NCBI GenBank assembly: GCA_025450915.1 | Contig: JANWLH010000039.1 | Coordinates: forward strand, 12,719-76,718 | From: Candidatus Limnocylindrales bacterium | GTDB lineage: Bacteria; Chloroflexota; Limnocylindria; Limnocylindrales; CSP1-4 | Direction: 5' to 3' | DNA length: 64,000 nucleotides | Position numbers and translations under genes: made by a program | The notes under the pieces: model-generated | The model's database searches: none | The model's input: only the letters and a program-made list of their open reading frames with translations | What the model was told of the DNA's origin: nothing | In this document: piece after piece, positions 291 to 48,000 of the stretch | How positions within the stretch are numbered: the first letter of the stretch is position 1 | How the letters are laid out: each line of letters starts with the position of its first letter

Positions 291-2918
291 CTACTTCGTG
301 TGAGCGTGACCCGGCCCCGCACCGGCCCCACCACCGGCGTGACCGTTGCCTGAGCCGTTGCCATGGCCATTGCCGGCCGCGCCGCCGGGACCGGCGGCCA
401 GCTCGGCGACGACCGCCGCAGGCAGGACCGGCAGCAGCCGGCCGGGATCGACGATCCGGCCATCTGCCCGGGCGCGGTCGAGCCAGTCGCGCTCGCGCCG
501 GATGTAGGTCACCTCGGTGTCCCGATCGACCATCGCCAGGGCCATCAGGTCGATCGTCGGCTCCTGGCGGCTGGCATGGGCGAGCTCGAAGTCCGCCCCG
601 TCGCGCAGAGCATCGTACGGGCAGGCATCGACGCAGATCCCGCACAGGATGCAGCGGCTCTCGTCGACTTCGTACTTCTGGAGGATCCGTGGCTTGGGCA
701 TGAGCGCGCCCGTCGGGCAGGTCTCGGCGCACCGCCCGCAGGAGACGCAGGGCGTGTCGTTCAGGCTCATGTCGAGCGGCGTCGTGACCAGGGTGTCGAA
801 GCCGATCCGCATGAAGTCGTAGCAGGCGGCGCCGACGACCTCCGCGCAGACCTGGGCGCAGCGCCCGCAGTCGATGCAGCGCGACGGCTCGCGCAGGATG
901 AATGCGTGGCTGTCGTCGCGAATGTAGTCGTGGTTGATCCCGGTAAACCGGTTCTCTGACACGCTCCGATAGCCCGCGCCCTGGTGGAAGCCGGGCTCGA
1001 GGGTCGGCAGGGTGGTGCCGTACTCGATGCCCAGGCGGCGCAGGTCACAGAAGCCGATCGCCTCGCAGGTGCACTGGAGGCAGCGGGTGCTCTCGGCGAC
1101 CGCCTCGGCCGGGCTGTACGGGATCTCGTACTCGACATAGCTCTTGTTGCGCAGCTCCGGGTCCATGGCCTTGAGCCGGTAGCGGGGCTCCTTGACCTCG
1201 CTCGTGAACGGCACGATCGAGAGGAACTCGGGCTGCGGCTCGGCCAGCGTCTGGCGGGTCTTGAGCGCACCCAGATCGAGGCCCTTGACGAACGCGTCGA
1301 CGGCATAGGCGCTGCGCCGGCCCTCCGCGACCGCGGCGACCACGGTTGACGCCCCGATCCGGACGTCGCCCGAAGCGAACACGCCCGGCCGGCCGGTACC
1401 GAAGGTGACCGCATCGGCCTTCAGCCGGTGCTGTTTCGTCGTCTCGAGTCCAGCCGAACCGGGTCCGATCCAGGCCAGGTCCGGCCCCTGGCCGATCGCC
1501 AGCAGGACCCGGTCGCATTCGATCGTGAACTCGGTGCCCGGCGCTGGTTCGGGTCGGCGCCGGCCCGAAGCGTCTGGCTCGCCCATCTTGTTGCGGATGA
1601 ACTCGACCCCATTGACCCGGCCCTTGGCGTCGACCAGGACCCGGATCGGCGCGGCCTGGAAGATCGCCGTGGCGCCTTCCTCGATCGCCTCGTGGACCTC
1701 GTCGGACGCGGGCATGTCCTTCATGTCGCGGCGATAGACGAGGGTCACCTCGGCCGCCCCCTGGCGAATCGACGTGCGGGTGCAGTCCATCGTGGTGAAG
1801 CCGCCGCCGATGACCACGACCCGCTTGCCGGCATGGCCCGGGAACGGCAGTCCCAGGGTCGCCGTCTTGAGGTAGTCGAGTCCCTCGAAGACGCCGTCGG
1901 CGTCCTCGTTCGGGACCCCCAGCTTGTTCGTCGCGTAGCAGCCGATCGTGACCAGGACCGCGTCGTAGCCCTGGCCCTGCAGGTCATCCAGGCTGAAGTC
2001 GCGGCCGAGGCCCTGGTTGCACTCGATCCGGCCGCCCAGGCGCGAGATGCTTTCGTACTCGGCCTCGAGGATCTCGACCTTGGGTAGCCGGTACTGGGGG
2101 ATGCCGTAGCGGAGCATCCCGCCGGGGGCCGCGTCACGCTCGAAGACCGTCACCTCGTGGCCGGCGATCAGCAGGTAATACGCGGCGGCCATGCCGGCCG
2201 GGCCCGAGCCGATCACGGCGACCCGCCGGCCGGTCTTCGGCTGGACCTCGTACGGGACCGGTGGATCAACGCCCTCGTTGAGCATCGCCCTGATCACCTG
2301 GTCGCCCGCGTACCGGTGGCTGTCCCGGATCGCGATCGCCTCGTCGACCTCGTCCCGCCGGCAGTGCTCTTCGCATGGGGCCGGACAGACCCGGCCGAGG
2401 ATGGACGGGAACGGGATCGTGCGCTTGAAGATCCGGCTCGACTCGCGCCAGTTGCCCTCGGCGTTCTGCTTGAGGAAGCCCGGGATGTCGATGTGACTGG
2501 GGCACTTGTTCTGGCAGGGCGGCAGGCAGTAGGCGTTGTGATCGCTGAAGATGAACTCGAGGTTCGTCTTGCGCAGGCGGCGCACCGCTTCGGTCTGGGT
2601 GGCGACCTTCATGCCTTCTTCGGCCGCCCGCGAGCAGGAGATCGGCGGATGCTCCTCGCCCTCGACCTCCACGACGCACATCCGGCAGGCACCGAAGCCG
2701 GGCAGCTTGGGTTCGTAGCACAGGGTCGGGATCTCGATCCCGTTGTCGCGGCAGACCTCGAGGATCGTCTGGCCGGCGCGACCCTCGACGACCCGCCCGT
2801 CGACCTCGACCCGGATCACCGGATCCGACTGCGGGCGCTGGGGCGCCTGGGTCGTGAGCAGGCGCTCGGACAGGGAGATCTCGGGCGGCGGGGCAGGGCG
2901 TGCGATCAGCTCGGTCAT
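291..2918 (-). CDS. Multidomain iron-sulfur flavoprotein at the NuoG position: NuoG-type [2Fe-2S] domain + GltD-like FAD/NAD(P)H module + C-terminal multi-[4Fe-4S] ferredoxin region; no molybdopterin-like domain; His/Gly-rich C-terminal tail
   Basis: N-terminal 2Fe-2S motif CYEPKLPGFGACRMCVVEV...ISCS. The GltD-like block matches E. coli GltD along its length (GRVCPAPCEEHC, GRRVAVIGSGPAGMAAAYYL, GGMLRYGIPQYRLPK, NEDADGVFEGLDYL, GKRVVVIGGGFTTMDCTRTSIRQGA, MGEPDASGRRRPE, VFASGDVRIGASTVVAAVAEGRR). C-terminal part carries CIDCGRCAQVC, CVSCGRCAETCP and CILCGICVDACP. Tail is GNGHGNGSGNGHAGGGAGAGPGHAH. Start overlaps the nuoF stop (ATGA). Confidence 0.8.
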   Translation of the reverse strand: MTELIARPAPPPEISLSERLLTTQAPQRPQSDPVIRVEVDGRVVEGRAGQTILEVCRDNGIEIPTLCYEPKLPGFGACRMCVVEVEGEEHPPISCSRAAEEGMKVATQTEAVRRLRKTNLEFIFSDHNAYCLPPCQNKCPSHIDIPGFLKQNAEGNWRESSRIFKRTIPFPSILGRVCPAPCEEHCRRDEVDEAIAIRDSHRYAGDQVIRAMLNEGVDPPVPYEVQPKTGRRVAVIGSGPAGMAAAYYLLIAGHEVTVFERDAAPGGMLRYGIPQYRLPKVEILEAEYESISRLGGRIECNQGLGRDFSLDDLQGQGYDAVLVTIGCYATNKLGVPNEDADGVFEGLDYLKTATLGLPFPGHAGKRVVVIGGGFTTMDCTRTSIRQGAAEVTLVYRRDMKDMPASDEVHEAIEEGATAIFQAAPIRVLVDAKGRVNGVEFIRNKMGEPDASGRRRPEPAPGTEFTIECDRVLLAIGQGPDLAWIGPGSAGLETTKQHRLKADAVTFGTGRPGVFASGDVRIGASTVVAAVAEGRRSAYAVDAFVKGLDLGALKTRQTLAEPQPEFLSIVPFTSEVKEPRYRLKAMDPELRNKSYVEYEIPYSPAEAVAESTRCLQCTCEAIGFCDLRRLGIEYGTTLPTLEPGFHQGAGYRSVSENRFTGINHDYIRDDSHAFILREPSRCIDCGRCAQVCAEVVGAACYDFMRIGFDTLVTTPLDMSLNDTPCVSCGRCAETCPTGALMPKPRILQKYEVDESRCILCGICVDACPYDALRDGADFELAHASRQEPTIDLMALAMVDRDTEVTYIRRERDWLDRARADGRIVDPGRLLPVLPAAVVAELAAGPGGAAGNGHGNGSGNGHAGGGAGAGPGHAHTK

Positions 2919-4204
2919 CGGGCGGCTTGCTCCGCGGCGGGCTGGAGCTTCGCGTCCAGCTCGGGTCGGAAGTATCGCATCACGCTGGTCATCGGAAGTG
3001 TCGCCAGGCGCTCGTGGTCACACAGGCCGCTGGCGACGATGTCCGCGGACAGGTCGCCGATCAGGTCCGCATCCGTCGGTCGCGGGGTCCCGGCATTGAT
3101 CCGGACCGCGATCTCCTCGAGGCGCCGAGTCCCGATCCGGCAGGGGATCGTCTTGCCGCACGCCTCGGTGGAGCAGAACCTGGTGAGGAGCTCGGCGAGC
3201 TCGAGGACGTCGGCGTTGGCGGCCGTGGCGACGATCGAGCCCGAGCCGATGTGCGCCCCGGCCGTCCGCAGGTCGTCGAAGGTATACGGGGTGTCGAGCA
3301 GGTCGGCCGGCAGGATTCCGCCCGATGGTCCGCCGACGAGGAGGGCCTTGGGCGGCGGGCCGGTCCGGGTCGTTGCCCCGACGAGGCCCAGGATCGTCCT
3401 GATGGTCGTGCCCAGCGGCACTTCGGCAACGCCCGCGCCGCCCGTCCCGCGGACGTGGACGAGGATCGTGCCCGGGGCATCAGGCGTGCCGATCGTCCGG
3501 AACTTGGCCGCACCTTCATGCATGATCCAGGCCGCCAGGGCCAGGGTCTGCACGTTCTGGACGACCGTTGGGCGGCCGAAGAGCCCGCGCTCGGCGGGAT
3601 GCGGTGGCCGCTGCTCGGGCTGGCCGCGCCTGCCCTCGAGCGCCTTGAGCAGGACGGTCTCCTCGCCGAGCATGTAGGCACCCTGGACCGGGCGGACCTC
3701 GACGTTGAGCTCATGGCCGGTGTCGAGGACGTCGCCACCGATGAAGCCGGCGTCCTCGGCGGCCCCGAGGGCGGCCTCGAGCCGCCGGATTGCCTCGGTC
3801 TCGGTCGCCCGGACGGCGATGATCGCGGTGTCGGCACCGATCGCCCAGGCGGCGATCGCGACGCCCTCGATCACGGCGTATGGGTCGCGCTCGATCAGGG
3901 TCGCATCGGTGCGCGTGGCGGGGTCCGCGCCGTAGCCGTTGGCCACGACGTAGCGCCGATCGGCAGGGGTGGTTGCGGCCAGGTGCCACTTGTCGGCCGT
4001 CAGGAAGCCCGCGCCGCCCCGACCGCGCAGGCCGGCCGCCCGGATCTCCGCGATGACGCCGGGAGGGGCGAGCCGTACCGCGATCCTGAGGCCCTCGAAG
4101 GCGCCGGCCTTGACGGCCGCGTCGAGATCGGTCGGATCCTTGGCGCCGGCCCGTCCCAGGATGGGCTGGGGCCAGCTCGCGGGTGTCTTGAGGAGGTCGG
4201 TCAT
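2915..4204 (-). CDS. nuoF: NADH-quinone oxidoreductase subunit F (51-kDa flavoprotein) with a variant N3-cluster motif
   Basis: FMN motif LRGRGGAGF and NADH motif YMLGEETVLLKALEGRRGQP are present. The N3 region reads STEACGKTIPCRIG...LCDH, where the canonical ESCGxCxPCR middle cysteine is absent. Confidence 0.85.
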   Translation of the reverse strand: MTDLLKTPASWPQPILGRAGAKDPTDLDAAVKAGAFEGLRIAVRLAPPGVIAEIRAAGLRGRGGAGFLTADKWHLAATTPADRRYVVANGYGADPATRTDATLIERDPYAVIEGVAIAAWAIGADTAIIAVRATETEAIRRLEAALGAAEDAGFIGGDVLDTGHELNVEVRPVQGAYMLGEETVLLKALEGRRGQPEQRPPHPAERGLFGRPTVVQNVQTLALAAWIMHEGAAKFRTIGTPDAPGTILVHVRGTGGAGVAEVPLGTTIRTILGLVGATTRTGPPPKALLVGGPSGGILPADLLDTPYTFDDLRTAGAHIGSGSIVATAANADVLELAELLTRFCSTEACGKTIPCRIGTRRLEEIAVRINAGTPRPTDADLIGDLSADIVASGLCDHERLATLPMTSVMRYFRPELDAKLQPAAEQAAR

Positions 4205-4208
4205 CGGA

Positions 4209-4877
4209 TCAGTGCACGCGTCCAGAGGGCTTCGTCGTGCCCGAGATCGCCTGGCCGAGGCCGCTCAGGTAGTCACCTTCGATGACCTCCCGGTCGGTGG
4301 CCGCCCCCTTGGATGGAGCCGGGGGTGCGAACCGGAGGTGGTCGTAGTACGTCGCCGTTCCGTAGACCATCGCGTACCAGGCCCCGGTCCCGAAGCTGAT
4401 CCGCTTGAGCGCCGCGACCGGCAGGTAGCCGTAGGCGGCCTGGGTCGCGGCAAGGATCTCGAGCATCCGCTTCGGATCGTGGTCGGCGTCGTGCAGGATC
4501 GCGTCGACCGGCCCGAGGTCGATCGGGCTCCAGTGCTCGTAGGCCACGTCGGGCACGGTCCGTCCGGCGCGGCGCAGGGCAGACTCCTCGCGCCGCTCGC
4601 CGTACGTCTCGGAGGCACCCCAGTGCACGGCGTAGCGACCCTTCGTGTCGACGCCGCCCATGTCGATGCACTCGATCGGGCAGGCCTGGGCGCACTGGAA
4701 ACAGGTCTCGCACTTGAGCGTGCCGTGCTCGTCGTAGAGGAGTTGCAGCCGGCCTCGGAACTTGGGCGAGACATCGGCCGGGACCTCCGGGTACAGGATC
4801 GTGGCCTTGGGCTGGAAGAACCGGAGCAGGGTCAGGCCCATCCCGCGCACGATGCCCAGGCCCGGGATCAGGCTCAT
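4209..4877 (-). CDS. Fusion protein: N-terminal NuoI-like domain with a single [4Fe-4S] motif + C-terminal NuoE N-terminal helical domain lacking the [2Fe-2S] thioredoxin-like domain
   Basis: YPEVPADVSPKFRGRLQLLYDEHGTLKCETCFQCAQACPIECIDM aligns to the NuoI first cluster region. The second CxxCxxCxxxCP motif is absent in all frames. C-terminal LEILAATQAAYGYLPVAALKRISFGTGAWYAMVYGTATYYDHLRF aligns to the NuoE N-terminal segment (..LPxxAxxxIxxxLGxxxxxVYGVATFYxxF). No Cys-bearing NuoE domain fits before the nuoF start 4 nt downstream. Confidence 0.7.
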   Translation of the reverse strand: MSLIPGLGIVRGMGLTLLRFFQPKATILYPEVPADVSPKFRGRLQLLYDEHGTLKCETCFQCAQACPIECIDMGGVDTKGRYAVHWGASETYGERREESALRRAGRTVPDVAYEHWSPIDLGPVDAILHDADHDPKRMLEILAATQAAYGYLPVAALKRISFGTGAWYAMVYGTATYYDHLRFAPPAPSKGAATDREVIEGDYLSGLGQAISGTTKPSGRVH

Positions 4878-4887
4878 GCCGCGGACC

Positions 4888-6228
4888 TCACCGGTTCACG
4901 ACCAGGATGGCGCCGGCGGTCACGAACAGGTTGAGCAGGGACGCCGGCAGCAGCCACTTCCAGGCAAAGCCCATGAGCTGGTCGATCCGGACCCGCGGCA
5001 GGGTGCCCCGCATCCACACGAACGTGAAGACGAAGACGTAGGTCTTGCCCATGAACCACAGCAGGCCCACGACCCAGTCGAAGCTCACGAAGGCCAGCCC
5101 GAGGACCGCGGCGACCGCGAGCAGGTTGAACAGCACGAAGCCGATGATCAGGGCCTGCCAGAACTTGACCTGGCTGTTGAGCAGGTAGAACGGCAGTCCG
5201 AGGACGACGATCGCCAGCGGCGGGCCGAGGGCCAGCAGGAAGAGCAGGCCGATCCCCAGACCGCCCGGATCGAGGCCGACGGTCACCGGCCAGGGCCAGT
5301 TGAACGGGGCGTTCCAGCCGCCCATGAACAGGGCGACGGTCAGGCCCGAGGCGATGAACACATTGACGTACTCGGCGAAGAAGAAGAAGCCGAAGCGCAT
5401 CCCCGAGTACTCGGTGGCGAAGCCGGCCACGATCTCCGAGTCGGCCTCGGTCAGGTCGAACGGCGTCCGGTTCGCTTCGGCGGTCACCGCGATGAAGAAG
5501 ATCACGAACGCCAGCGGCTGGCGAAAGACGTACCAGTCCAGGACGGTGCCGGCCTGCCCGAGGACGATCTTGTTGATGCTCAAGGTGCCCGCGAGGAGCA
5601 CCACCCCGACGACCGACAGGGTCAGCGGGATCTCGTAGCTGACGATCTGGGCCGCCGAGCGCAGGCCGCCCAGGAGCGAGTACTTGTTGAAGCTGGCCCA
5701 GCCGGCCATCAGCAGGCCGACGACGGTCAGGCCGCCCATCGCGAAGAAGTACAGCAGCCCGATGTTGAAGTCCTGGCCGAAGATTCCCGGGGCGAACGGC
5801 AGGACGAGCAGCGACATGACGCTCGACATGTAGACGACGACCGGCGCGAGGGTGAAGACCGGCACGTCGGCGCTCGTCGGGGTGAAGTCCTCCTTCATCA
5901 GGACCTTGAGCCCGTGGACCACCGAGAGCGCCGAGCCGAACGGGCCCACCCGGTCCGGGCCGTAGCGCAGGTTCATCAGCGCGATCACCTTCATCTCCAT
6001 GTAGATGATCAGGAAGGCGCTGGGCACGGTCATCAGGAGGACGATCGTGGCGGCCACCACGAACCGGACGAGCGGCAGGTTGTCGACCAGGAACTGGACG
6101 ACTGCCCCGCCGACCAGGGCGATCAGCACGGCCAGGCCGGCCGTCAGGACCGCTCCGAGGGGGATGACGACTGCCAGGATCTTGCCCGGGATCGTCAGCC
6201 GCTCCCAGGTCCTTCCAACCACGGTCAT
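4888..6228 (-). CDS. nuoH: NADH-quinone oxidoreductase subunit H
   Basis: Polytopic membrane protein with NuoH hallmarks (EYSGMRFGFFFFAEY, RTPFDLTEADSEIVAGF). Confidence 0.9.
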   Translation of the reverse strand: MTVVGRTWERLTIPGKILAVVIPLGAVLTAGLAVLIALVGGAVVQFLVDNLPLVRFVVAATIVLLMTVPSAFLIIYMEMKVIALMNLRYGPDRVGPFGSALSVVHGLKVLMKEDFTPTSADVPVFTLAPVVVYMSSVMSLLVLPFAPGIFGQDFNIGLLYFFAMGGLTVVGLLMAGWASFNKYSLLGGLRSAAQIVSYEIPLTLSVVGVVLLAGTLSINKIVLGQAGTVLDWYVFRQPLAFVIFFIAVTAEANRTPFDLTEADSEIVAGFATEYSGMRFGFFFFAEYVNVFIASGLTVALFMGGWNAPFNWPWPVTVGLDPGGLGIGLLFLLALGPPLAIVVLGLPFYLLNSQVKFWQALIIGFVLFNLLAVAAVLGLAFVSFDWVVGLLWFMGKTYVFVFTFVWMRGTLPRVRIDQLMGFAWKWLLPASLLNLFVTAGAILVVNR

Positions 6229-7464
6229 CTACTTGTCCACCCCGCCCATGACCGGATCGAGCGAGGCCATGATCGCCATCGTGTCGGCGATCAGGTTGCC
6301 GGGCGTCAGCAGGCCGACGGCCTGGAGGTGGACGAAGCTCGGGTCGTGGATCCGCATCCGATACGGCTGGTCCGTCCCGTCGCTGATCGCGTAGGTCGAG
6401 TACTGGCCGCGCGGGCCTTCGACCGCCGCGTAGGCCCGGCCCGGCCGGGGGCGGATGAGGCGGGGCATCTTGGCCATGACCGGCCCGTCGGGCATCTCGT
6501 GGAGGCACTGGTCGATGATCCGCAGGCTCTGCTTGATCTCGTCCATCCGGAGCAGGTAGCGGGCCAGGCAGTCACCCTCGGTCCGCGACGGAATGTCGAA
6601 GTCCAGCTCGGGATAGATGCTGTACGGGTGGGCCCGGCGGACGTCGAAGGGAACGCCGGTCGCCCGCAGGTTCGGGCCGGTCATGCACATGTTCAGCGCG
6701 GTGGCCGTGTCGATGACCCCCAGGCCCCGGGCGCGCCGGACGAAGATCTCGTTCTCGTTGAGCAGGGCGTTGTTCGAGTCGATCTGGTGGGTTGCCTTGC
6801 TCATCCAGGTGCCCAGCCGGCTCATGAACTCATGGTTCAGGTCGCCGTTCACCCCGCCGATCCGGAAGTAGTTGAAGAGCATCCGCTGGCCGGTCAGGGC
6901 CGCCAGCATCTCGACGATCTCGTCGCGCTCGATGAAGCTCCACAGGATCGGCGTCAGGCCGCCCAGGTCGAGCGCGAACCAGCCCATGAAGAGGGCGTGG
7001 CTGGCAATCCGGTTGAGCTCACCCGAGAGGACCCGGATGTACTCCGCCCGACGGGGCACCTGCACGTCGAGGAGCTTCTCGAAGGCGATCACCGGCGACC
7101 ACTCGCAGAAGAGCGAGCTGATGTACTCGAGAGGATCGGTGTAGCAGATCGCCTGGTGGTAGTCGGCGTTCTCGCACAGCTTCTCGACGCCCCGGTGGAG
7201 ATAGCCCAGGACCGGATCGAGATCGACGACGTTCTCGCCGTCGATCTTGAGGACGATCCGGAGAACGCCGTGGGTCGACGGGTGCTGAGGGCCCATGTTC
7301 ACGAACATCTCGCCGTCGCGGAGCGTGTAGAACTCGGCCTCGCGCTCCGTCCGGGGCGGGTACGGCGGGATCGGCTCGAACGTGCCGAGAGCCTCGTCGA
7401 GGGTGACCCGCGGATCGTCCGACGAGGCGTGGGCGGGGATGTCGAAGGGCGTTCGGGTGGTCAT
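6229..7464 (-). CDS. nuoD: NADH-quinone oxidoreductase subunit D (49-kDa)
   Basis: 411 aa with HRGVEKLCE and the NuoD C-terminal region. Abuts the nuoH start. Confidence 0.9.
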   Translation of the reverse strand: MTTRTPFDIPAHASSDDPRVTLDEALGTFEPIPPYPPRTEREAEFYTLRDGEMFVNMGPQHPSTHGVLRIVLKIDGENVVDLDPVLGYLHRGVEKLCENADYHQAICYTDPLEYISSLFCEWSPVIAFEKLLDVQVPRRAEYIRVLSGELNRIASHALFMGWFALDLGGLTPILWSFIERDEIVEMLAALTGQRMLFNYFRIGGVNGDLNHEFMSRLGTWMSKATHQIDSNNALLNENEIFVRRARGLGVIDTATALNMCMTGPNLRATGVPFDVRRAHPYSIYPELDFDIPSRTEGDCLARYLLRMDEIKQSLRIIDQCLHEMPDGPVMAKMPRLIRPRPGRAYAAVEGPRGQYSTYAISDGTDQPYRMRIHDPSFVHLQAVGLLTPGNLIADTMAIMASLDPVMGGVDK

Positions 7465-7481: not shown

Positions 7482-8033
7482 CTAGCTCGACGAGGCCTGG
7501 CGGACGTGGGCGGCCGTCTCGGCGTTCGTCGGCCCGTGCGTCTGCTCCATCGGTCGAACGCCGCCACCGGGCGAGCGCGAGGCGTCATCGGGCAGGAAGA
7601 AGTCCTTGCGCAGCGGGAAGCTCGTGTAGTCCGGCGGCATGTAGATCCGGCGCAGGTCGCGATTGCCCTCGAAGGTGATCCCGAACATGTCGTACGCCTC
7701 GCGCTCCATCCACTCGGCGCCCTTCCACAGGAACGTGACCGAGGGGACCCGCGGGTCGTCGCGGGAAAGGCCGTCGGCGATCACCCGCAGCCAGTCGGCC
7801 GACGAATCGCTCCACAGGTGATAGACAGTCTGCATCGTCGTGCCGGTGTCGACGCCGGCCAGGTCCGAGAGGAGCCGGAAGCGGAGATCGGGCTCATCGT
7901 GGAGGGCGAGCATCACCTCGGGCAGGTCACCGGGCGCGATCCGGATCTCCGTCTCGTCATGGCGCTGGCGCACCGGGCCGGTGAGCTCCTCGCCGAACCG
8001 GGCCTCGAGGCGGCGCCGCAGGGCTCGATCCAC
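7482..8033 (-). CDS. nuoC: NADH-quinone oxidoreductase subunit C (30-kDa), separate from NuoD
   Basis: 183 aa, NuoC-like (..[32 protein letters not shown]..). Confidence 0.85.
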
Positions 8034-8738
8034 CTACAGGTCCTCGGGCACGGTGGGGCCGATCGGCCGGTCGGGCCAGTGGCCGCGGCGGTCCTTGATC
8101 AGCTGCTGGAGCTTCATCATCCCGTAGATCAGGCCCTCGGGGCGGGGCGGGCAGCCGGGCACGTAGACATCGACCGGCATGATCCGGTCGATCCCCTGGA
8201 TCGTGCTGTAGCTGCGCTTGTAGCGGCCACCCGAGCAGGTGCAGTCACCCATCGCCACGCACCATTTCGGCTCGGGCATCTGCTCCCAGAGACGGACGAG
8301 CGGGCCGGCCATCTTCGTCGTGCAGGTCCCGGCCACGATCAGGACGTCGGCCTGGCGCGGCGATGCCCGGAACGGGAACATTCCCCAGCGGTCCATGTCG
8401 TTCTTGCTGGTCGCCGCGGACATCATCTCGATGGCGCAGCAGGCCAGCCCCGAGAGCAGCGGCCAGAGGCTGTTGGCCCGGATCAGGTCGAGGACGATAT
8501 CGGCCTTGGTCGGGATGATCTCGAGCGGCCCGGCCCAGCGAGCGTTGTCGCGCCGGCCGAGACCCGATTCCTCGAACTCGCGCAGGTGGGTGATGTCCGA
8601 TTCCTGGCCGCCGTTGTAGGCGACCGGGTTGCTCGACTGCCAGAGCGTGTTCGGGACGATCACGGGCTCGACGAGATCGCGGCCCTCGGTGATGACCGCG
8701 GGCAGGTTGCCCACTGGTCCGTCGGGCTTCAGCGCCAC
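8034..8738 (-). CDS. nuoB: NADH-quinone oxidoreductase subunit B (20-kDa, N2 cluster) with ~60-aa N-terminal extension
   Basis: [30 protein letters not shown] motifs. Start overlaps the nuoA stop. Confidence 0.9.
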
Positions 8739-9085
8739 GTGAGAACCCCCTTGCGCCAGGCGTAGGCGAGGCCCAGCAGCAGGATGCCCACGAACAGCAG
8801 CATGCTCACGAAGCCCCCCAGCAGGACGCTCCGGAAGACGATCGCCCAGAGGTAGATGAAGATCACTTCGATGTCGAACGCCACGAACAGCAGGGCGTAG
8901 ATGTAGAACGACAGGCCGAATCGGCCGTGGGTGTCGCCGAACGTGTCGATCCCCGACTCATACGGCAGGCCCTTGTGGACGTCGCCACGGTTGCGGTGGG
9001 AGATCAGCCACGCCGCACCGATCGTGAGGAACACGAACGAGACACCGGCGACGCCGAACCCGACGATGTACCAGATCCCGGTCAA
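8729..9085 (-). CDS. nuoA: NADH-quinone oxidoreductase subunit A
   Basis: 118 aa, 3 TM helices, NuoA-like. First gene of the nuo operon, with 300 bp of intergenic sequence upstream. Confidence 0.85.
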
Positions 9086-12358: not shown

Positions 12359-12414
12359 AGACGGACGCGCTAGAGACGGACGCGCTACAGACGGACGCGC
12401 TACAGACGGACGCT
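12357..12414. repeat. 15-bp tandem repeat, ~3.9 copies (AGAGACGGACGCGCT / ACAGACGGACGCGCT)
   Basis: Direct reading of 12357–12414. The folK stop (12356–12358) and the glpX stop (12400–12402, minus strand) both fall inside the array. Confidence 0.9.
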
Positions 12415-13389
12415 TGGCGGCCGCGACCGGTCGAACATCTGGACCGTGTCGACGAAGCGGACATGCGCTTCGCGATAGGACATCACCAGTGAGTGGGTCC
12501 GGGCGCCGCCGCCGAAGAAGCGAACGCCGTCGAGGAGGTCGCCGCTGGTCACCCCAGTCGCCGCGAAGAGCAGGTTGTCGCCCGAGGCCAGGTCTGCGGT
12601 GAAGTAGACCCGGCTCTCGTCGTCGTCGTTGCCCATCTGCTTCGCCCGGACCCGCTCGTCGTCGTTGCGGAACCGGAAGCGGGCCTGGATCTCGCCACCG
12701 AGGCAGCGCAGCGCGGCCGCCGTGATCACGCCCTCCGGTGCCCCGCCGATGCCCATGACGGCGTGCACGCCGGTGCCCGAGACAGCGGTGCTGATCGCCG
12801 CCGAGAGGTCGCCGTCGGAGATCAGCTTGATCCGCGCCCCCGCGGCTCGAACCTCCGCGATCAGCTCATCGTGGCGGGGTCGCTCGAGGATGACGATCGT
12901 GATATCGGCGACCCGCCGGCCGAGTGCCTCGGCAATCAGGTGGCAGTTCTCGGTGGGCGACTTGCGAATGTCGACCTTGCCGGCCACGACCGGGCCGACG
13001 CACAGCTTCTCGAGGTACGTGTCCGGGGCATGGAGCAGGCCGCCGCGCTCGGCTGCGGCCAGGACGGTGATCGCGTTCGCCTGGCCGTGGGCCACGAGGT
13101 TCGTGCCCTCGAGCGGATCGACGGCGATGTCGATCGCGGTCGACGCTTCGCGGGCTTCGACGCCCTTTCGCCCGACCTCCTCGCCGATGTACAGCATCGG
13201 GGCCTCATCGCGCTCGCCCTCGCCGATGACGATCGTCCCGGCCATGTCGATCTCGTCCATCGTCCGGCGCATCGCCTCGACCGCGGCCCGGTCGGCGTCG
13301 TCCTTGGCGCCGCGGCCCATGTAGCGAGCCGATGCGATCGCCGCGGCCTCCGTGACCCGGACCATCTCCAGCGCAAGCAGCGGCTCCAT
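12400..13389 (-). CDS. glpX: Fructose-1,6-bisphosphatase class II (GlpX)
   Basis: 329 aa. ..[34 protein letters not shown].. are typical of GlpX. Confidence 0.9.
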
Positions 13390-13400
13390 GCGGCAGTCCC

Positions 13401-14948
<1,548 letters not shown>

Positions 14949-15141
14949 CCGGGCATCCTCCGTCCAGCGTTCGCGGCTCTCGCGGGCGCCCCGATCCGCG
15001 ACCGCCCGGCGCTTCGGGGCGAATCAGGGTCGTCTGTCGGCAGGCGGTGCCGCACCTGCGGCCGAGTATAGCGTCCCGGCGTGGCATACTCGGGACCCTC
15101 GCCCGGCCTCCAGCCACGGTCCGACAAGGAGAATCCAACCG

Positions 15142-15609
15142 GTGACGCTGCTTCCCTGGGAATACATGTTCCAGTCGTTCAGCGCCTCGAACTTCCACGA
15201 CCTGTTCTACCCGATTGCGCTCGGCTCGCTGGTTCTGCTGATCGCCCTGTGCGTCCTGTATGCCGTCCGGACGCGAGCGCTGCGCCACCACCCGCCGTAC
15301 CTCGACCTGTACGAGTGGCTGCTATGGACGGGGATCATCGCCTTCGGGCTGCTCCTGATCTTCAGCATCTTCGTCTGGGACTTCATCTTCGTGCTGGCCA
15401 CGGTCATCACGTCGGCCGTGGTCTTCGTCTGGGTCCGCTTCGTCCGGTTCCCGCCGATCCTGGCGATGTACGAGCAGAAGCTCGCTCGCCAGCGCTACCT
15501 GAGCCGCCAGAAATACGCCCACCCCGAGGCGACGATCCGCACGAAGTCGAGCCGGCCGACGCGGGTGGTTCGGGCCGCTCCAGCCAAGCGGACGCGCAAG
15601 CGCCGCTAG
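15142..15609 (+). CDS. Small integral membrane protein (3 predicted TM helices, basic C-terminal tail)
   Basis: GTG start at 15142 follows an AAGGAGA Shine-Dalgarno. Hydrophobic segments LFYPIALGSLVLLIALCVLYAV, LLWTGIIAFGLLLIFSIFVW, FIFVLATVITSAVVFVWV. Confidence 0.55.
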   Translation: MTLLPWEYMFQSFSASNFHDLFYPIALGSLVLLIALCVLYAVRTRALRHHPPYLDLYEWLLWTGIIAFGLLLIFSIFVWDFIFVLATVITSAVVFVWVRFVRFPPILAMYEQKLARQRYLSRQKYAHPEATIRTKSSRPTRVVRAAPAKRTRKRR

Positions 15610-15615
15610 CGGGCG

Positions 15616-16100
15616 TGGAGATTCGACGGTTCGGGATCGGCCAGCGACGGCCCGACGGTCCCGCCGGAACGCACAACGTCGAGGCTGCGGTCATCGAATC
15701 AGGGCCGCGCGGCGTGGTCGCCGAGCTGGCCTTCGCGCGCCACGCGGCGATCGAGACGCACACCAATCCGAACACCGCCTGGTTCGTGGTCATCGAGGGC
15801 GGCGGCTTCGTGACAGTGGGTGCGGACCGGGCCCGGGTCTTCGCGGGCGAAGCCGTCCTGTGGCCGGCCGGGGTGCCCCACGGCGCATCGACCGAGCTGT
15901 CCGAGATGCGGGCGATCGTGGTCGAGTTCCCGGTCGCCGACCTTGCCCTGGGTCCCGGCGCGGCGATCCTGGATGCCGGCGTGCTGCCCTCGGCGCCCTC
16001 GGCTCGCTCGGAGGCCGCGAAGGTCGTTGCCCCGGCCGACGGGCACCTCGTTGATGAGCGGCCGGCGCCGTACGACCCCCGCCACGGCGAGCCGCGCTAG
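15616..16100 (+). CDS. Cupin-domain protein
   Basis: Cupin motifs ..AIETHTNPNTAWFVVIEGGG.. and ..GEAVLWPAGVPHGASTE... GTG start 6 nt after the upstream stop. Confidence 0.6.
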
Positions 16101-16170
16101 GCTGAACGGCCGCGTACGGGCTCGGGCTCCGTTGCGGCCCGACGCCCAGGAGCCGCCGATGCGGGACGTG

Positions 16171-16350
16171 CACCCAGTACAACAGAACCCCGTTTTCGAC
16201 CCGTTCCTTCGGCGGGGTGCCCTGCCCGCAGCATCGCATCCGGCGATTTCATGCCGCGCCACGCTCACGGCGGAATGATTCCTGCCGCCGAGGCGCGAGG
16301 CGACTGGGTCGAACCCCTGGAAATCGCCCGTTTGTTGTTCTGGGTACACG
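16171..16350. repeat. Imperfect long inverted repeat (arms ~16171–16203 and ~16305–16350) enclosing nested GC-rich stems; candidate structured element
   Basis: Arm 1 is CACCCAGTACAACAGAACCCCGTTTTCGACCC. The reverse complement of arm 2 is GTACCCAGAACAACAAACGGG...GGTTCGACCC, sharing ACCCAG, ACAACA, AAC and TTCGACCC blocks. Internal CTTCGGCGG / CCGCCGAGG pairing also present. Confidence 0.35.
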
Positions 16351-16612
16351 CATTGCCGTGATCGTGTTCGCCGCGGCCCGGGCATGGCCAGGGTCTGTCA
16401 GCCGTGGGGCCCCGGGAAGCGTGGGCACCGAGGGGATGGGATGGTGGCCGGTCGAGCGACGTGCGTCGCGACTCTCCTCGCCAACGTTGCCGGACCCCTC
16501 GACGACGAACAGACCACTCGCATGGCGGGCGGGCGCTCGTCCGCCGGAAGGCGCCAATCTCATCACCCGGCTGATGTCGCCGACGTTTGTGCCGGCCCAA
16601 GCTGGGCCGCAA

Positions 16613-16763
16613 TACCACGACTAACCTCAAGTCGACGGGTTGTGCGGGGCTCAGGCCCGGATCGGGACCAGGTGGCGCCGTCCTGGCCACTGGAATACCA
16701 CGACGATTCTTGGAACGAGGCGGAAAGGCGTTGGCAGCCGTCCGGCCAAGGTTAGTCGTGGTG
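16613..16763. repeat. MITE-like element, copy A (~151 bp) with perfect 13-bp terminal inverted repeats
   Basis: Left TIR ACCACGACTAACC at 16614–16626; right TIR GGTTAGTCGTGGT at 16750–16762. Internal TIR-like ACCACGACGATTC. Confidence 0.65.
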
Positions 16764-16804
16764 CGAGGCCAGGTCCAACGAGCGTCGCGTCTCGGACCCG
16801 GCGG

Positions 16805-16952
16805 TACCACGACTAACCTTATGCGGCGGGTTGAGCACGGCTCAGGACCCGAATCGGGACCCATGGGCCATCCTGGCCGCTGGAACACCACGACGATTCG
16901 TAGAACGAATCGTCGGGCGTCGCGAGCCGTCGGCCTAAGGTTAGTCGTGGTG
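16805..16952. repeat. MITE-like element, copy B (~148 bp), ~75–80% identical to copy A, same perfect TIRs
   Basis: Left TIR ACCACGACTAACC at 16806–16818; right TIR GGTTAGTCGTGGT at 16939–16951. Conserved cores GCTCAGGNCCGNATCGGGACC and TCCTGGCCNCTGGAANACCACGACGATTC. Internal hairpin ACGATTCG-TAGAA-CGAATCGT. Confidence 0.65.
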
Positions 16953-16986
16953 TCGGGGCGCCAGAGGGGTCGGGGCGCCAGAGGGG
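16952..16986. repeat. 17–18-bp direct repeat x2 (GTCGGGGCGCCAGAGGGG TCGGGGCGCCAGAGGGG)
   Basis: Direct reading, immediately 3' of MITE-like copy B. Confidence 0.8.
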
Positions 16987-17025
16987 CCGGGCCAGCGCCA
17001 GAATGGCGTCCGGAGCGCAGGACAG

Positions 17026-17699
17026 CTATGCCTCTACCGCCAGCTCTGCGACGAGCGCGCCGAGCTGGCCGAGGATCCGGGCGGTGGCGCCCCAGACGTG
17101 GAGGCCGTCGATCCGGTAGCCGCCGTAGCGCAACGGCCAGTCGCGAACCTGGCGCTCGACGATCTCGACCGGCGCGTCGGGCAGGAACGCGTCGAGGGGC
17201 GCCCAGATGATCCGGGCCACCTCCGACTCGAACGCCTGCAGCTCAGGCGAACGGCGGGCAATCCCGAGAACGGGCGTGATGCTGAAGCTGCTGACCGGAA
17301 TTCGAAGGGGATCGAGCCGGCCGATCACCTCGACCTCTGCTGCGGCCGGGTCCAGACCAACCTCCTCCTCCGCCTCGCGCAGGGCGGTCGCCTCGAGGTC
17401 GGCGTCCCCGGGCTCGACCTTCCCACCCGGGAACGAGACCTCGCCGCTGTGCATGCCCTCGTAGGTTGCCCGCTCGGTGAGGATGACGACTGCCGTGCCG
17501 TCAACGCTCGGGGCGACGAGCACGAGCACCGCGGCGGGCCGGTCGCCGGGCACAGCCTCGAGACGCAGCTCGCTCCGCGGTCGCCCGTCGGTGAAGACAG
17601 GCATCAGCACGACGGGGCCAGGGGGCAAGCGACCCCTGGCACCAACGGCCGTTCGATCCGGCAGCCGGGAGAGTCTCGCGGCCGCCTCGTCGAATTGCA

Positions 17700-17700
<1 letters not shown>
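17026..17700 (-). CDS. NUDIX hydrolase, CoA pyrophosphatase-like
   Basis: NUDIX box HSGEVSFPGGKVEPGDADLEATALREAEEEVGL. Start ATG overlaps the clpB stop (TGATG). Confidence 0.8.
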
Positions 17701-20468
<2,768 letters not shown>

Positions 20469-20480
20469 GGTTCGTTCTCG

Positions 20481-21569
20481 CTATGAGGTCGTGGCCCGCG
20501 GATCGGGCTGGTCGATGAGCTCGAGGAAGGCGACGCCGGCGGTCCGCGCCTCGTCGCTGAGGTTGGTCGGCAGGATCACCCGCACGGTGACCAGGAGGTC
20601 GCCGGTCGGCTTGACCCCGTCCTTGGGCTTGAGCCGGGGCATCCCCTGGCCGGTGAGCCGAAAGGTCCGGCCGTTCTGGGTGCTCGCCGGGATCTTGAGG
20701 AGGACCTTGCCCTTGAGCGTCTGAACGGGAACCTCCGCGCCCAGGAGCGCCTCGCGGAGGGTCAGCGGCAGGTCGCGGGTCAGGTCGGCGCCCTTGCGTC
20801 CGAAGGTCGGGTGCGGGCGGACCCGGGTCACGAGGTCGAGGTCACCGCCGTCGGCACCCTTGCCGCGCAGGCGGATCCGGCTGCCCGTCTCCACGCCGCG
20901 TGGGACCGCGACCTCGAGGCGCTTCCCGTCGACCTCGAGGAGCCGGCTCGTGCCATGGAACGCCTCTTCGAGACCGATCTCGACGTCAGCCTCGCTCGTC
21001 ACCTGGCCGGCGGCCGACCTCGCCCGGCCGGCCGGCTGGCCATGGCCCCCGCCGTCGACGTTCAGGCCGGCAAGGATGTCTTCGAAGCTGGCGCCACCCA
21101 CCGGTCGCGAGCCGCGTCCGCCGCTTGCAGGTGACGTCTCGGCCCCGGCGGCCGCCCCGAAGAACGTCCGGAAGAAGTCGCTGAAGCCACCGGCGTCACC
21201 GGCCGATCGAAACTCGTAGCGGACATTGCCGCCAGCGGCCCCCTGGCCGTAGCCGGCGAACGGGCCACCCGGCCCGAACGGATCGCCGCCGGCACTGCCA
21301 CGACCGCCCGACCGGCCCGGACGACCTGCGCCGGCCTGGGAAAGCTGCTCCCAGTTGGCCCCGAGCATGTCGTATTTCGAGCGCTTCTCGGGATCGGAGA
21401 GGACCTCGTTGGCCTCGTTGATCTCCTTGAACTTGGCCTCAGCGGCCTTGTCGCCGGGCTTCAGGTCCGGGTGGTGCTGGCGAGCGAGCTTGCGGAAGGC
21501 ACGCTTGACCTCCGCTGGGGAAGCGTCGCGCTTGATCCCCAGCGTCGCGTAGTAATCGCGATAGTCCAT
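20481..21569 (-). CDS. DnaJ-family co-chaperone without zinc-finger domain (CbpA-like)
   Basis: J-domain [40 protein letters not shown], a G/F-rich region, and C-terminal DnaJ substrate-binding domains. No CxxCxGxG repeats. ATG at 21567–21569. Confidence 0.85.
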
Positions 21570-21588
21570 GGGCGGCCTCGCTCGTTGC

Positions 21589-24207
21589 TCAGCGGCCCTT
21601 GGTGGTGCCCTGGGCTGCCCGCTGCACCGCGACCGGCGGCTGGTCTGTTGGCGGGAACGGGGACCGGCTGGCCGGCCCGCTGCCACTCGACGTCCCACGC
21701 TCGGGCACCGGCACCGGCCGGGGAGCCAGGGCCCGAGGACGGCGCCGGAGCGCGTTCTCGAGCACCTGGGTCATGTCGTCGACCATCACGAGCTTGATCT
21801 GCTTGCGGATCTCCTCGGGGATATCCCGCAGGTCACGCTCGTTCTTGCGAGGCAGGATGACCACGCCGGCACCGGAGAGGTGCGCGGCGAGGATCTTGCT
21901 CTTCAGGCCGCCGATCGGCAGGACCCGCCCGCGGAGGGTGATCTCGCCGGTCATCGCGACGTCCTTGCGAACGGGGATCCCAGTCAGCGCGCTGACCATG
22001 GCCGTGGCCATCGTCACGCCCGCCGAAGGGCCGTCCTTGGGGATGCCGCCGGCCGGCACGTGGATATGGAGGGTGTTCCGCTCGAAGAGCTCGCGCTCGA
22101 TACCCAGGCTGGCCGCGTTGGCGCGGATCCAGGACAGGGCGGCCCGAGCGGACTCGCGCATCACTTCACCGAGTTGTCCGGTGAGGATGAAGTCCTCCTT
22201 GCCTTCCATCTTGGTGACCTCGACGGCGACGATGTCGCCACCGGCCTCGGTCACGACCAGGCCCGTTGCCGCGCCGGTCTGATCCTCCGACTCGAGCTCG
22301 CCGTACTCCCAGCGCGGCTGGCCGAGGTATTCCTCGAGCTTCTTGACGTCGACGACGGTCTTGCGCTTGCGGCCCTCGGCGACGCTTCGGGCGACCTTGC
22401 GCATGACGTTGGCGATCTCGCGCTCGAGATTCCGGACGCCGGCTTCCTTGGTGTAGGCCTGGACCAGGCGGACCATCGCCTCGGCGGTGATCTCGATCCG
22501 CTTGTCGGTCAGGCCGTGGTTCTCCATCTGCTTGGGGACGAGGAACCGGCGGCCGATCTCGATCTTCTCCTGCTGCGTGTAGCCGGGCAGCTGGATGATC
22601 TCCATCCGGTCGCGCAGGGCGGCCGGGATCGGATCGACCAGGTTGCCGGTCGCGATGAACAGGACCTTGCTGAGATCGAAGGGCACCTCCAGGTAGTTGT
22701 CCTGGAACGTGTTGTTCTGCTCCGGGTCGAGGACCTCGAGGAGGGCCGAGCTCGGATCGCCCCGGAAGTCCATGCCGATCTTGTCGATCTCATCGAGCAT
22801 GAAGACCGGGTTGTTGGTCCCTGCCGTCTTCACGTTCTGGATGACCCGGCCGGGCAGTGCCCCGATGTACGTCCGGCGATGGCCGCGGATCTCGGCTTCG
22901 TCGTGGATTCCGCCGAGGCTCATCCGGACGAACTTGCGACCCATGGCCCGGGCAACGCTCTTGCCGAGCGAGGTCTTGCCGACGCCGGGAGGTCCGACCA
23001 GGGCGAGGATGGGCGAGCGGATCGTGTCGGTCAGGACGCGCACGCTCAGGTATTCGAGGATCCGTTCCTTGATCTTCTCGAGGCCGTAGTGGTCCTCGTC
23101 GAGGATCCGGGCCGCTTCGTGGATGTCGAGCTGATCGGTGGTCGAGACGTTCCAGGGCAGGCCGACCAGCCAGTCGACGTAGGTCCTGATGACGCCGACC
23201 TCGGGCGAGGCGGACGGGATCCGGCTCATCCGGTCGACTTCCTTGATCGCCCGCGCCTTGATCTCGTCGGGCATGCCGGCCGATTCGACCTTCTCGCGAA
23301 GCTCGTTGAGCTCGGCCTGCTGGGGATCGTCCTCGCCCAACTCGCGCTGGATCGCCTTGAGCTGCTCGCGCAGGATGTACTCGCGCTGGGTCTTGTCCAT
23401 CTCGGACTTGACCTCGGACTGGATCCGACCCTTGAGCTCAAGGATCTCGACCTGCCGGGCGAGGAAGTTGCTGACGAGCTTCAGGCGTTCGGTGACGTCG
23501 ATCGTCTCGAGGAGCTCCTGGCGCTGCTCGGTGGTCATGTCGGGGCTGTAGGCGATCATGTCGGCCAGCAGGCCCGGGTCGGTGATGTTGCGGGCGGCGA
23601 CGGCCGCCTCCGGCGGGACCGGAGCGCCGTTCGCCACGTACGCCTCGATCTGCGTCTGGACGGAGCGCATCAACGCCTGGATCTCGACCCCGGCGGGCAC
23701 CTTGTCGGGGAGGTCCTCGACGGTTGCCAGCAAGTACGGACCGCTGGCGTTGAAGCCGGTGACGCGCAGGCGGCTCTGGCCCTGGACGATGGCCCGAACC
23801 GTGCCGTCCTGGAGCTGGACGACCTGGGCGATCTTGGCCAGGGTGCCGATCTCGTAGAGCTGCGACGGGTCGGTGATCTCTTCCATCTCCGGCGACCGCT
23901 GGGTCACCAGGGCGATGGGCCCACCGCTGGCCACGGCCGCATTGAGGGCGGCGACGCTCTTGTCGCGGCCGACCTGGAGCGGCACGATCATCTCCGGGAA
24001 GATCACGGTCTCGCGCAGGGCGACGAGGGGCAGCTCGCGGCTCGACGGCGCGGCCTTGCTCGACCGGGCCTTCCTCGGGACGACCTTGGTCGGCGCATCT
24101 GGATCAGTTGCGCGCTTGGTCCGTCGCTTGGTCTCCGGATTCGACGGTTTGCTAGCCATTGCCTGGTTCTCCTTGTCGACGGCTTGCGGCCGCCGCTCGT
24201 TGGTCAC
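21589..24207 (-). CDS. lon: ATP-dependent Lon protease (endopeptidase La) with basic N-terminal and Pro/Ser-rich C-terminal extensions
   Basis: Lon N-domain, AAA+ Walker [14 protein letters not shown], and protease domain with catalytic DGPSAG and ..KILAAH.. context. Confidence 0.95.
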
Positions 24208-45670: not shown

Positions 45671-45711
45671 CCAATCTCGGCCAACGGGCCAGGCGCTGAA
45701 AGGCGACGCCA

Positions 45712-46919: not shown

Positions 46920-46922
46920 GGC

Positions 46923-47243
46923 GTGGATCCCGGTTCGTCGACCGGCTCGGCGTTCGAGCGCCTCGAAGCGACGGTCACCGGCCGCGTCCAGGCCGTGGGC
47001 TTCCGTGTCTTCGTCGCGAGCCGGGCCGCAACGCTGGGCCTGACCGGCTGGGTCCGGAACGGCTCCGACGGCTCGGTCGAATGCGTCGCCGAGGGGCGCC
47101 GGGCGGATCTCGAGATGCTTCTCGCCGCCCTCGAGCTTGGCCCATCCGGTGCTCGGGTCGATGCTGTCAGCCGTTCCTGGACGGTTGCCACGGGATCATT
47201 CGACCGCTTCTCGATCGCCAGCGGCTGGACCTCCGGCGACTGA
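46923..47243 (+). CDS. acyP: Acylphosphatase
   Basis: VTGRVQAVGFRVF...GLTGWVRNGSDGSVECVAEG matches the acylphosphatase signatures. Confidence 0.8.
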   Translation: MDPGSSTGSAFERLEATVTGRVQAVGFRVFVASRAATLGLTGWVRNGSDGSVECVAEGRRADLEMLLAALELGPSGARVDAVSRSWTVATGSFDRFSIASGWTSGD

Positions 47244-47523
47244 CCCCGGGCAGATTGCCGGACGTTCCTCTGGCAAAACGCGATTCTTCACGGGCGTATG
47301 GTCGGGACTGGGCTCTTTCAGTTCCCCGGACACGGCCGCCTCGCCAGATTCCGTGCTCAACCGAGGCTTGAACGGAGCTCCGCAGGATCCTCGATCGGTC
47401 GCCACCGACATAAGCCGGCCTCATCTCGTGCGTTGACAAAGAACGTCGCAACGAGCCGTTGCGTGGCAAGCCGATCCGGCTCACGATCGCCGCGGCCAGA
47501 CCGACGCTGGGAGGGGGATCCCG

Positions 47524-47804: not shown

Positions 47805-47948
47805 CGCCGGGGTAGTTAGCAGTCATCGTGGCCGCGGCTGGATCCAGCGCCTGATGGTCTGGCGGTAATCGCCCGTGCGTGGCGGAGGCACGGGGCGCGA
47901 CTTGCGGCCGCTGGTCTGACCGAATCTGTCCAGAAGTGCCCCGACCAG

Positions 47949-47988: not shown

Positions 47989-48000
47989 GATTGCGTTGGA

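Follow-up and report, generated by a model that had tools for sequence, protein, structure and literature searches.

Few respiratory enzymes have been studied as well as complex I, whose 14 core subunits are usually taken as fixed building blocks. Within it, the NuoE/StnA-type helical domain normally docks on NuoF, and the large C-terminal domain of NuoG normally makes the contact between the N-module and the complex I core. In operons of the 11-subunit type, nuoABCDHIJKLMN, nuoI lies between nuoH and nuoJ (PMC3144371). The Stn enzyme is encoded in the gene order A-B-C, where StnB is HydB/NuoF-like and carries flavin mononucleotide (FMN) and extra clusters, and StnC is a GltD domain inserted in a NuoG-like iron-sulphur (Fe-S) protein with an inactive FdhF-like domain (PMC10482914). 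The extra B-subunit clusters set bifurcating Bfu enzymes apart from non-bifurcating homologues (PMC9304861). The nearest published ideas to the locus described here are the proposed Nuo-Bfu and Mbh-Bfu complexes, Nuo-Bfu having BfuABC in place of NuoEFG (PMC9304861). We analysed a 64,000-nucleotide stretch (hereafter the window) of contig JANWLH010000039.1 from a Candidatus Limnocylindrales bacterium, in which a nuo operon on the minus strand encodes a 222-aa protein, ORF222 (4209-4877). Limnocylindria are uncultured Chloroflexota that are abundant in soils and freshwater. ORF222 carries the N-terminal half of NuoI fused to the N-terminal domain of a NuoE/StnA-type protein, and the other half of NuoI forms the C-terminus of G', encoded two genes downstream. 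It is likely, judging from these sequences, that the naturally split NuoI reassembles from the two chains and in this way anchors an NAD(P)H module with two flavins. The locus is best described as a new complex I variant with a naturally split NuoI, widespread in Limnocylindria.

ORF222 begins as a NuoI and leaves it halfway. Residues 1-84 (4626-4877) hold the NuoI N-terminal segment, the first ferredoxin motif CETCFQCAQACP (4677-4712; Cys56/59/62/66) and the DTKGRY strand. Residues 9-81 matched NuoI models in the first half only (NF004536, positions 13-86/180, E 4e-15), and in the NCBIfam scan the N-half also matched TIGR01971 at positions 1-66/121. The best solved relative was E. coli NuoI, residues 3-81 of ORF222 aligning with residues 6-86. 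Profile-profile comparison with hhalign placed residues 8-75 of the ORF222 family on columns 23-90/175 of the NuoI profile (99.7%, E 1e-26). Against TIGR01971, ORF222 alone scored 47.8 bits, which is under the curated cut-off of 113.05 bits. Residues 125-186 (4320-4505) form a NuoE/StnA/HydC-type N-terminal helical domain without cysteines, which matched PF01257 at positions 2-63/145 (30.5 bits, E 4e-7; Pfam cut-off 24.8 bits) and whose PDB matches were the N-terminal parts of StnA-, NfnC- and HydC-type chains. The original prediction, made from the sequence alone, had called ORF222 a fusion of a NuoI half with a NuoE N-terminal domain and had asked for a profile check of both parts against PF01257 and TIGR01971. 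Both were matched, the NuoE-like similarity is significant, and the chimera is genuine. The boundaries needed redrawing: the NuoI match runs through the first motif as claimed, but the similarity stops near residue 84 and not at ~130, and the NuoE-type helical region does follow the NuoI part but is separated from it by a linker at residues 85-124.

This linker (4506-4625) is lineage-specific and falls outside the NuoI and NuoE profile matches. Its stretch HWG..ETYGERREESALRRxGRTVPD is close to invariant within the clade of the window. The segment HWGASETYGERREESALRRAGRTVPD (4548-4625, residues 85-110), near-invariant in the same clade, fits neither the NuoI nor the NuoE profile, and the linker is presumably a docking element for some partner. 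At the other end of the protein, a variable C-terminal tail (residues 187-222; 4212-4319) stands in place of the thioredoxin-like [2Fe-2S] domain. PF01257 positions 64-145, which cover that domain and the four N1a cysteines, had no match in ORF222. The protein has five cysteines (56, 59, 62, 66 and 70) and none beyond residue 70, so that a [2Fe-2S] site is impossible in it. The ORF222 stop ends at 4209 and nuoF starts at 4204, a gap of 4 nt, as had been noted. The loss of N1a, also foreseen, is borne out: neither ORF222 nor NuoF encodes a thioredoxin-like domain for this cluster.

The second NuoI motif was expected to be absent from every frame, and a six-frame scan of 4100-5000 did find a single CxxCxxCxxxC-type motif and no second one. 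It lies instead in G' (875 aa; 291-2918), whose start overlaps the nuoF stop by 4 nt. G' consists of a [2Fe-2S] domain, a GltD-type flavin adenine dinucleotide (FAD)/NAD(P)H domain with two [4Fe-4S] clusters, a 2x[4Fe-4S] ferredoxin-like domain and a NuoI C-terminal half. The NuoI half occupies residues 741-800 (519-698), ends in ...IDLMAL and matched NuoI profiles. It contains the third ferredoxin motif of G' (618-653; Cys756/759/762/766), which has no partner within the protein. In the Pfam/NCBIfam scan, the C-terminus of G' matched TIGR01971 at positions 71-116/121. When the tail (residues 741-875) was isolated, its nine best NCBIfam matches were all NuoI models, at 45.2 bits. The best single-stretch PDB matches of the tail were the second halves of NuoI/TYKY (for example residues 152-200/222, ~50 bits), and the TYKY alignments extend 27 residues past the CP of the motif. 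Polyferredoxins outrank NuoI/TYKY for this tail only because many weak repeats are summed. Profile-profile comparison placed the tail family on NuoI columns 99-156/175 (99.0%, E 2e-18). The columns covered by the two halves, 23-90 and 99-156, are therefore complementary and do not overlap.

Beyond the NuoI half, residues 801-875 (294-518) form a conserved extension, TEVTYIRRERDW..., and then a Gly/His-rich tail. The Gly/His-rich end (294-~400) reads GNGHGNGSGNGHAGGGAGAGPGHAHTK and is variable in relatives, with ...SSHVHHK in L089 as one form. It may serve in metal binding or in assembly.

We then asked how the halves behave as one protein. Residues 1-92 of ORF222 joined in silico to the G' tail gave one end-to-end match to TIGR01971 (positions 1-116/121) with 95.2 bits, approximately the sum of 50.5 and 45.2. 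The joined halves aligned colinearly with six canonical NuoI proteins at 30-34% identity, and all eight cysteines and both prolines were invariant. The split is also conserved. In 59 loci, most positions of the NuoI-like G' tail show at least 90% conservation, and in each of the five divergent clades examined (that of the window, L089, L087, L085 and L092) G' terminates with a NuoI C-half. In the latter four, the proteins equivalent to ORF222 (P0124, P0226, P0243 and P0245, respectively) are 25-51% identical to that of the window. An example of a C-half from the divergent clades is CIFCGDCVEVCPHGALGETTAFELSSYQRFGKEAILDKEQL, which bears the FE..xY....L..KE.L signature of NuoI C-termini. On the other side of the split, the four motif cysteines of ORF222 are invariant across all clades, down to 25% identity.

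In a 2x[4Fe-4S] ferredoxin fold, each cluster is held by three cysteines from one motif and a fourth from the other. A lone NuoI half would be unable to bind even one cluster because its ligands come 3+1 from two motifs. G' has three CxxCxxCxxxC-type motifs (residues 681-691, 724-735 and 756-767) and no cysteine beyond 766. With the one motif of ORF222 these make four, and therefore two complete dicluster domains; the odd motif in each protein is sensible only if both pair. These considerations bear on the proposal that ORF222 is a self-sufficient minimal chimera with a single NuoI-type cluster, lacking N6b and N1a, as first suggested. ORF222 does lack a second motif and a thioredoxin-like domain in any frame, and the absence of N1a is real. 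But a lone CxxCxxCxxxCP motif completes neither cluster, and the operon itself encodes a fitting second half of NuoI, which is always found together with ORF222. We regard a self-sufficient ORF222 as quite improbable. The earlier inference of an enzyme without N6b is not supported, since the second NuoI half is encoded in trans at 519-698, and 'minimal' no longer describes ORF222, because the N-module has been rearranged more widely and ORF222 is only a part of that.

A different concern is that the arrangement arises from a sequencing or assembly error, or from a pseudogene, in which a frameshift has truncated a normal nuoI and nuoE. The database record argues strongly against this. The identical protein is deposited as GenBank HEY7937984.1 from a Candidatus Limnocylindrales metagenome-assembled genome (MAG) and is present on 10 contigs. 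ORF222 sits in a 113-member cluster at 90% identity, and a database search returned ~2,900 homologues, of which hundreds have 70-89% identity and a length of 218-240 aa. With each GTDB species represented by one genome, a scan gave ~510 loci, nearly all labelled Chloroflexota or Limnocylindria. Comparison of orthologous loci, proposed as a check in the original prediction, gave the same picture: all 84 loci of the set L001-L084 are colinear and keep the chimera. The third-position GC content (GC3) of ORF222 is 0.92, as in its neighbours (~0.9 is typical for real genes of this genome), and a Shine-Dalgarno-like GGTGAGG lies 7 nt upstream. A single-base correction that restores a full NuoI and a complete nuoE is ruled out by the six-frame motif scan and by the cross-genome conservation, and a frameshift or indel artefact was rejected on the same grounds. 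The one observation in favour of an artefact is that frameshifts do occur in some assemblies, as the fragmented G' at L004 shows; nothing else speaks for it, and we give it a negligible chance. In that long-read MAG (L004:12063-14668), the G' gene was called as three pieces of 122, 465 and 48 aa, reflecting either an assembly frameshift error or a pseudogene.

Several results weigh against a NuoI reassembled from the two chains. The joined halves, at 95.2 bits, stay below the TIGR01971 cut-off of 113. AlphaFold2 modelled the rejoined NuoI with low confidence, at a mean predicted local distance difference test score of 36.8 alone and 49.2 with the six canonical NuoI proteins as alignment. StnC, 9bov_A and T. 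maritima HydA can be aligned with G' as far as its residue ~766, through the third motif, and are therefore also Cys-rich here. The third motif itself could thus be inherited from a Stn-like ancestor, with only its flanks NuoI-specific, and the NuoI junction may lie within the motif. Finally, all sequences in the dataset come from MAGs or metagenomes, and all named matches are MAGs. As for membership of NuoI, the first motif is present in ORF222, the second is found not in the same polypeptide but in trans (G' residues 756-767), and neither chain reaches the curated cut-off.

The alignments through the third motif also favour an explanation in which the halves do not pair. Here the third G' motif would be a Stn/Fdh-like leftover with its own cluster or none, and the N-half of ORF222 would serve as an anchor on NuoH/NuoD or would pair with itself. 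Polyferredoxin repeats match the third motif as well, and the pairing of the halves is deduced from sequence. However, the flanks of the motif (10 residues before it and ~30 after; FELxxxxR...IDL..L) match NuoI and not StnC, and G' has no further cysteine to complete a cluster. The invariant cysteines of ORF222 speak for cluster binding, and a homodimer of the N-half is unexpected because complex I holds one NuoI. Unpaired halves are, in our judgement, unlikely. We also considered whether the third motif could be the Mo-domain (N7-type) cluster site of Fdh/NuoG and rejected this, as the motif is CxxCxxCxxxCP and not CxxCxxxC and has NuoI flanks.

The split nuoI belongs to a tight operon whose minus-strand order in the window is nuoA, nuoB, nuoC, nuoD, nuoH, ORF222, nuoF and G'. 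Direct Pfam matches identified nuoH (4888-6228), nuoD (6229-7464), nuoC (7482-8033) and nuoB (8034-8738), the last with the tandem-Cys N2 motif GLACCAIEM; nuoA (8729-9085) was recognised from its position and from its homology to the PF00507 gene of L001. The genes nuoJ-N fall beyond the start of the window and were read from colinear relatives on longer contigs. There, nuoJ, K, L and M directly follow G' in 55 full-length related loci. In L001, L002 and L004, J-K-L-M is followed by a third gene of the PF00361 antiporter type, presumably nuoN. The full order, with relatives, is nuoA-B-C-D-H-[I'::E']-F-[G'::'I]-J-K-L-M-N, where I'::E' is ORF222. All genes of the 11-subunit core (nuoA, B, C, D, H and J-N) are thus found in one operon, J-N via the relatives. 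Because the related loci are colinear, the E-F-G' cassette occupies the position that nuoI has in 11-subunit operons. It looks like a Stn/Nfn-like cassette (E, F and a protein with [2Fe-2S], GltD and ferredoxin domains) placed inside the nuoI of an 11-subunit-type operon. By its gene content, the operon would encode an NAD(P)H:quinone oxidoreductase with proton pumping.

Just upstream of nuoA lies a gene for an NDUFAF7/MidA-type methyltransferase (PF02636; 9392-10591). The mitochondrial role of this family is that of a complex I assembly factor. The PF02636 gene adjoins nuoA in L001 too, and it also adjoins the nuoB-nuoD-IE-F-G' cluster of L092, IE being the ORF222-type gene. It is likely an accessory or assembly gene, its membership of the unit being suggested by the conserved adjacency. 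An association of PF02636 with 11-subunit operons has been reported for Actinobacteria (preprint 10.1101/2021.02.01.429150).

The remaining cassette proteins resemble Stn and Nfn enzymes most closely. Compared with solved relatives, G' scored 534 bits with 9bov_A, 477 with NfnA (9n5u) and 475 with StnC (8oh5), and F scored 313, 303 and 296 bits with the B subunits. The NuoF/StnB-core flavoprotein (429 aa; 2915-4204) carries the FMN/NADH site and an N3-type cluster. It has four cysteines in total, aligns only to residues 107-513/584 of StnB-like chains, and is without the Fe-S domains that bifurcating StnB/HydB have at the N-terminus ([2Fe-2S]) and at the C-terminus (2x[4Fe-4S]). The homologous A, B and C subunits of a Bfu enzyme are thus present in order, with the GltD insertion, and the B2-B5 Fe-S domains and the NuoE-like [2Fe-2S] are absent. 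We judge the module probably non-bifurcating because the defining extra B-subunit clusters are missing. On this domain content, it is most likely a dehydrogenase that has one nucleotide site at the FMN in F and a second at the FAD in the GltD domain. The similarity of F and G' to StnB/StnC and NfnB/NfnA could instead point to a true electron-bifurcating Bfu/Stn enzyme, in which case the complex would be a 'Nuo-Bfu' that depends on ferredoxin plus NAD(P)H; such complexes have been proposed (PMC9304861). Yet F aligns only to the StnB-like core, without the extra N- and C-terminal Fe-S domains, and the StnA-like subunit has no [2Fe-2S] domain; such clusters define bifurcating Bfu enzymes (PMC9304861; PMC10482914). 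Bifurcation by this module is very improbable.

Two details of the module were seen along the way. The N3 motif of NuoF (3137-3181, minus strand) reads RFC-STEA-C-GKTIP-C against the canonical CxxCxxC: the second cysteine is replaced by Thr/Ser, and an extra cysteine lies 5 residues upstream. All 34 NuoF proteins of the window clade in which the motif was found have the altered form, and those of L087 and L092 are canonical. In G', the GltD domain appears, by eye, to sit within an N5-like His/Cys motif, with HNAYCLPPCQNKCP before it and CLQCTCEAIGFCDL after it (2499-2540 and 1047-1082; residues 127-140 and 613-624). This placement is probably common to StnC-type proteins.

Collectively, these results suggest how a split NuoI and a two-flavin module could work together. 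The first 84 residues of ORF222 would give the NuoI N-terminal segment and first Cys motif, and the last ~135 residues of G' would add the second motif together with the C-terminal segment of NuoI. The fragments would assemble into a normal 2x[4Fe-4S] NuoI domain with N6a and N6b, in its usual place on NuoB/D/H, each N6 cluster being ligated by three cysteines of one chain and one cysteine of the other. N6b would then probably be present in the complex and not missing. The N-half is tethered to the cluster-less NuoE/StnA-type helical domain and the C-half to the end of the Fe-S chain of G'. Because each fragment is fused to an N-module subunit, reassembly of NuoI would staple the module to the Q-module. 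The Stn/Nfn-derived module, with the FMN of NuoF and the FAD of GltD, would in this way be held on an 11-subunit-type core (NuoA, B, C, D, H and J-N), and the fusion contacts would replace those of the NuoG C-terminal domain, which the module lacks. N1a has been lost. Electrons would pass from NADH at the FMN site, and probably from NADPH at the GltD site, through the G' clusters to N6a/N6b, N2 and quinone. The physical pairing of the halves, the occupancy of the clusters, the substrates used and the direction of electron flow are all predictions from sequence.

The distant relatives record different stages in the loss of N1a. The thioredoxin-like domain is complete in P0243, with CxxxxC...CxxxC. 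In P0124, P0161 and P0270 it is still there but has lost one or two of the cysteines, and in the window type, P0226 and P0245 it is gone. The P0161 type, ~280 aa long, forms a large second clade in Limnocylindria. It follows from this graded decay that the fusion to the NuoI N-half is older than the loss of N1a.

Some relatives have variant loci. In L087:6481-14281 (Chloroflexi MAG GCA_016190715.1), the order is nuoA-B-C-D-H-IE-F-G' with no nuoJKLMN after it; after G' come genes for a flavin reductase, a GYD protein, a ferredoxin and a 2-oxoacid:ferredoxin oxidoreductase. The complex may be smaller, or its antiporter-like subunits may lie elsewhere. L092:3216-9221 (Limnocylindria MAG GCA_036518215.1) has only nuoB-nuoD-IE-F-G' and the PF02636 gene, with none of nuoA, C, H or J-N near the cluster, and its NuoD-like protein has a C-terminus of the NuoD type and not of the NiFe-hydrogenase type. 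This cluster may encode a soluble or separately encoded sub-complex.

On the plus strand of the window, 54477-~58700 contains two FAD-dependent oxidoreductase genes (Pfam DAO and FAD_binding_2), and the only other double CxxCxxCxxxCP motif of the window follows them at 57804. By eye, this arrangement resembles glpA/B/C and is unrelated to NuoI. The housekeeping context at 12400-24207 and 43718-52915 includes a glpX-type FBPase, PurH, ClpB, Lon, an amino-acid permease, a histidine kinase, a 650-aa NYN-domain protein and a GGDEF-HD protein. One tRNA-Gly (49865-49939) lies in the window, and an Rfam scan of the whole stretch gave no matches.

Database names give no hint of NuoI in either protein: ORF222 is called 'NAD(P)H-dependent oxidoreductase subunit E' or 'ferredoxin', and G' is called 'FAD-dependent oxidoreductase' or 'formate dehydrogenase major subunit'. 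Pathway callers would probably score such genomes as lacking NuoI, NuoE and NuoG. The literature searched on split or fused NuoI, GltD in complex I, respiration in Limnocylindria and Stn/Nfn/Bfu enzymes, which left most subscription-journal papers outside, does not describe the arrangement. If our proposal is correct, a core Fe-S subunit of complex I has been split in nature, and a foreign electron-input module is tethered covalently through the two halves. This would then be a case of natural module exchange by insertion into a gene, with two chains sharing [4Fe-4S] clusters on the main route of the electrons. The enzyme would also be an example from nature of a complex I that has neither N1a nor the NuoG C-terminal domain, bearing on the debated roles of both, and in a lineage of ~500 species-level genomes a proton-pumping complex might use NADPH directly, as substrate or as product. 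More tentatively, and with doubt outweighing confidence, we suggest that Limnocylindria use an unrecognised class of complex I. In this class, a Stn-derived FMN+FAD module would be inserted in nuoI, N6a/N6b would be ligated by two polypeptides, and N1a would be dispensable. Through the GltD site, NADPH would drive pumping in addition to NADH; in reverse, the proton-motive force would reduce NADP+, or transhydrogenation would be coupled to quinone reduction.

How the locus relates to described systems can be stated subunit by subunit. All parts of canonical NuoI/Nqo9/TYKY (NDUFS8) are recognisable here, namely the N-terminal segment, both CxxCxxCxxxCP motifs and the segment after the second motif. 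What differs from the canonical protein is that two polypeptides encode the fold, with nuoF and most of G' lying between the halves, and that each half is joined to an N-module subunit; neither the halves nor their joined form reaches the NCBIfam cut-off. With NuoE/Nqo2/NDUFV2, StnA, HydC and NfnC (PF01257), ORF222 shares the N-terminal helical domain, and its gene directly precedes a NuoF-type gene as in nuoEF and stnAB (PMC10482914). In contrast to these PF01257 proteins, it has no thioredoxin-like domain and none of the four cysteines of N1a/A1. StnABC/NfnABC (Bfu; 8oh5, 9n5u and 9bov) have the same A-B-C gene order and the same GltD insertion in the large NuoG/HydA-like Fe-S subunit. Unlike them, the module of the window lacks the A-subunit [2Fe-2S], the extra B-subunit Fe-S domains and the FdhF-like domain of C, bears NuoI halves at both ends, and is embedded in a nuo operon instead of being free-standing. 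With the 11-subunit operons the locus has in common the A-B-C-D-H-(I)-J-K-L-M-N order and the adjacent NDUFAF7-type gene (PMC3144371; 10.1101/2021.02.01.429150). The Nuo-Bfu and Mbh-Bfu proposals (PMC9304861) involve no split NuoI, whereas here the input module is inserted inside nuoI and is fused to both of its halves.

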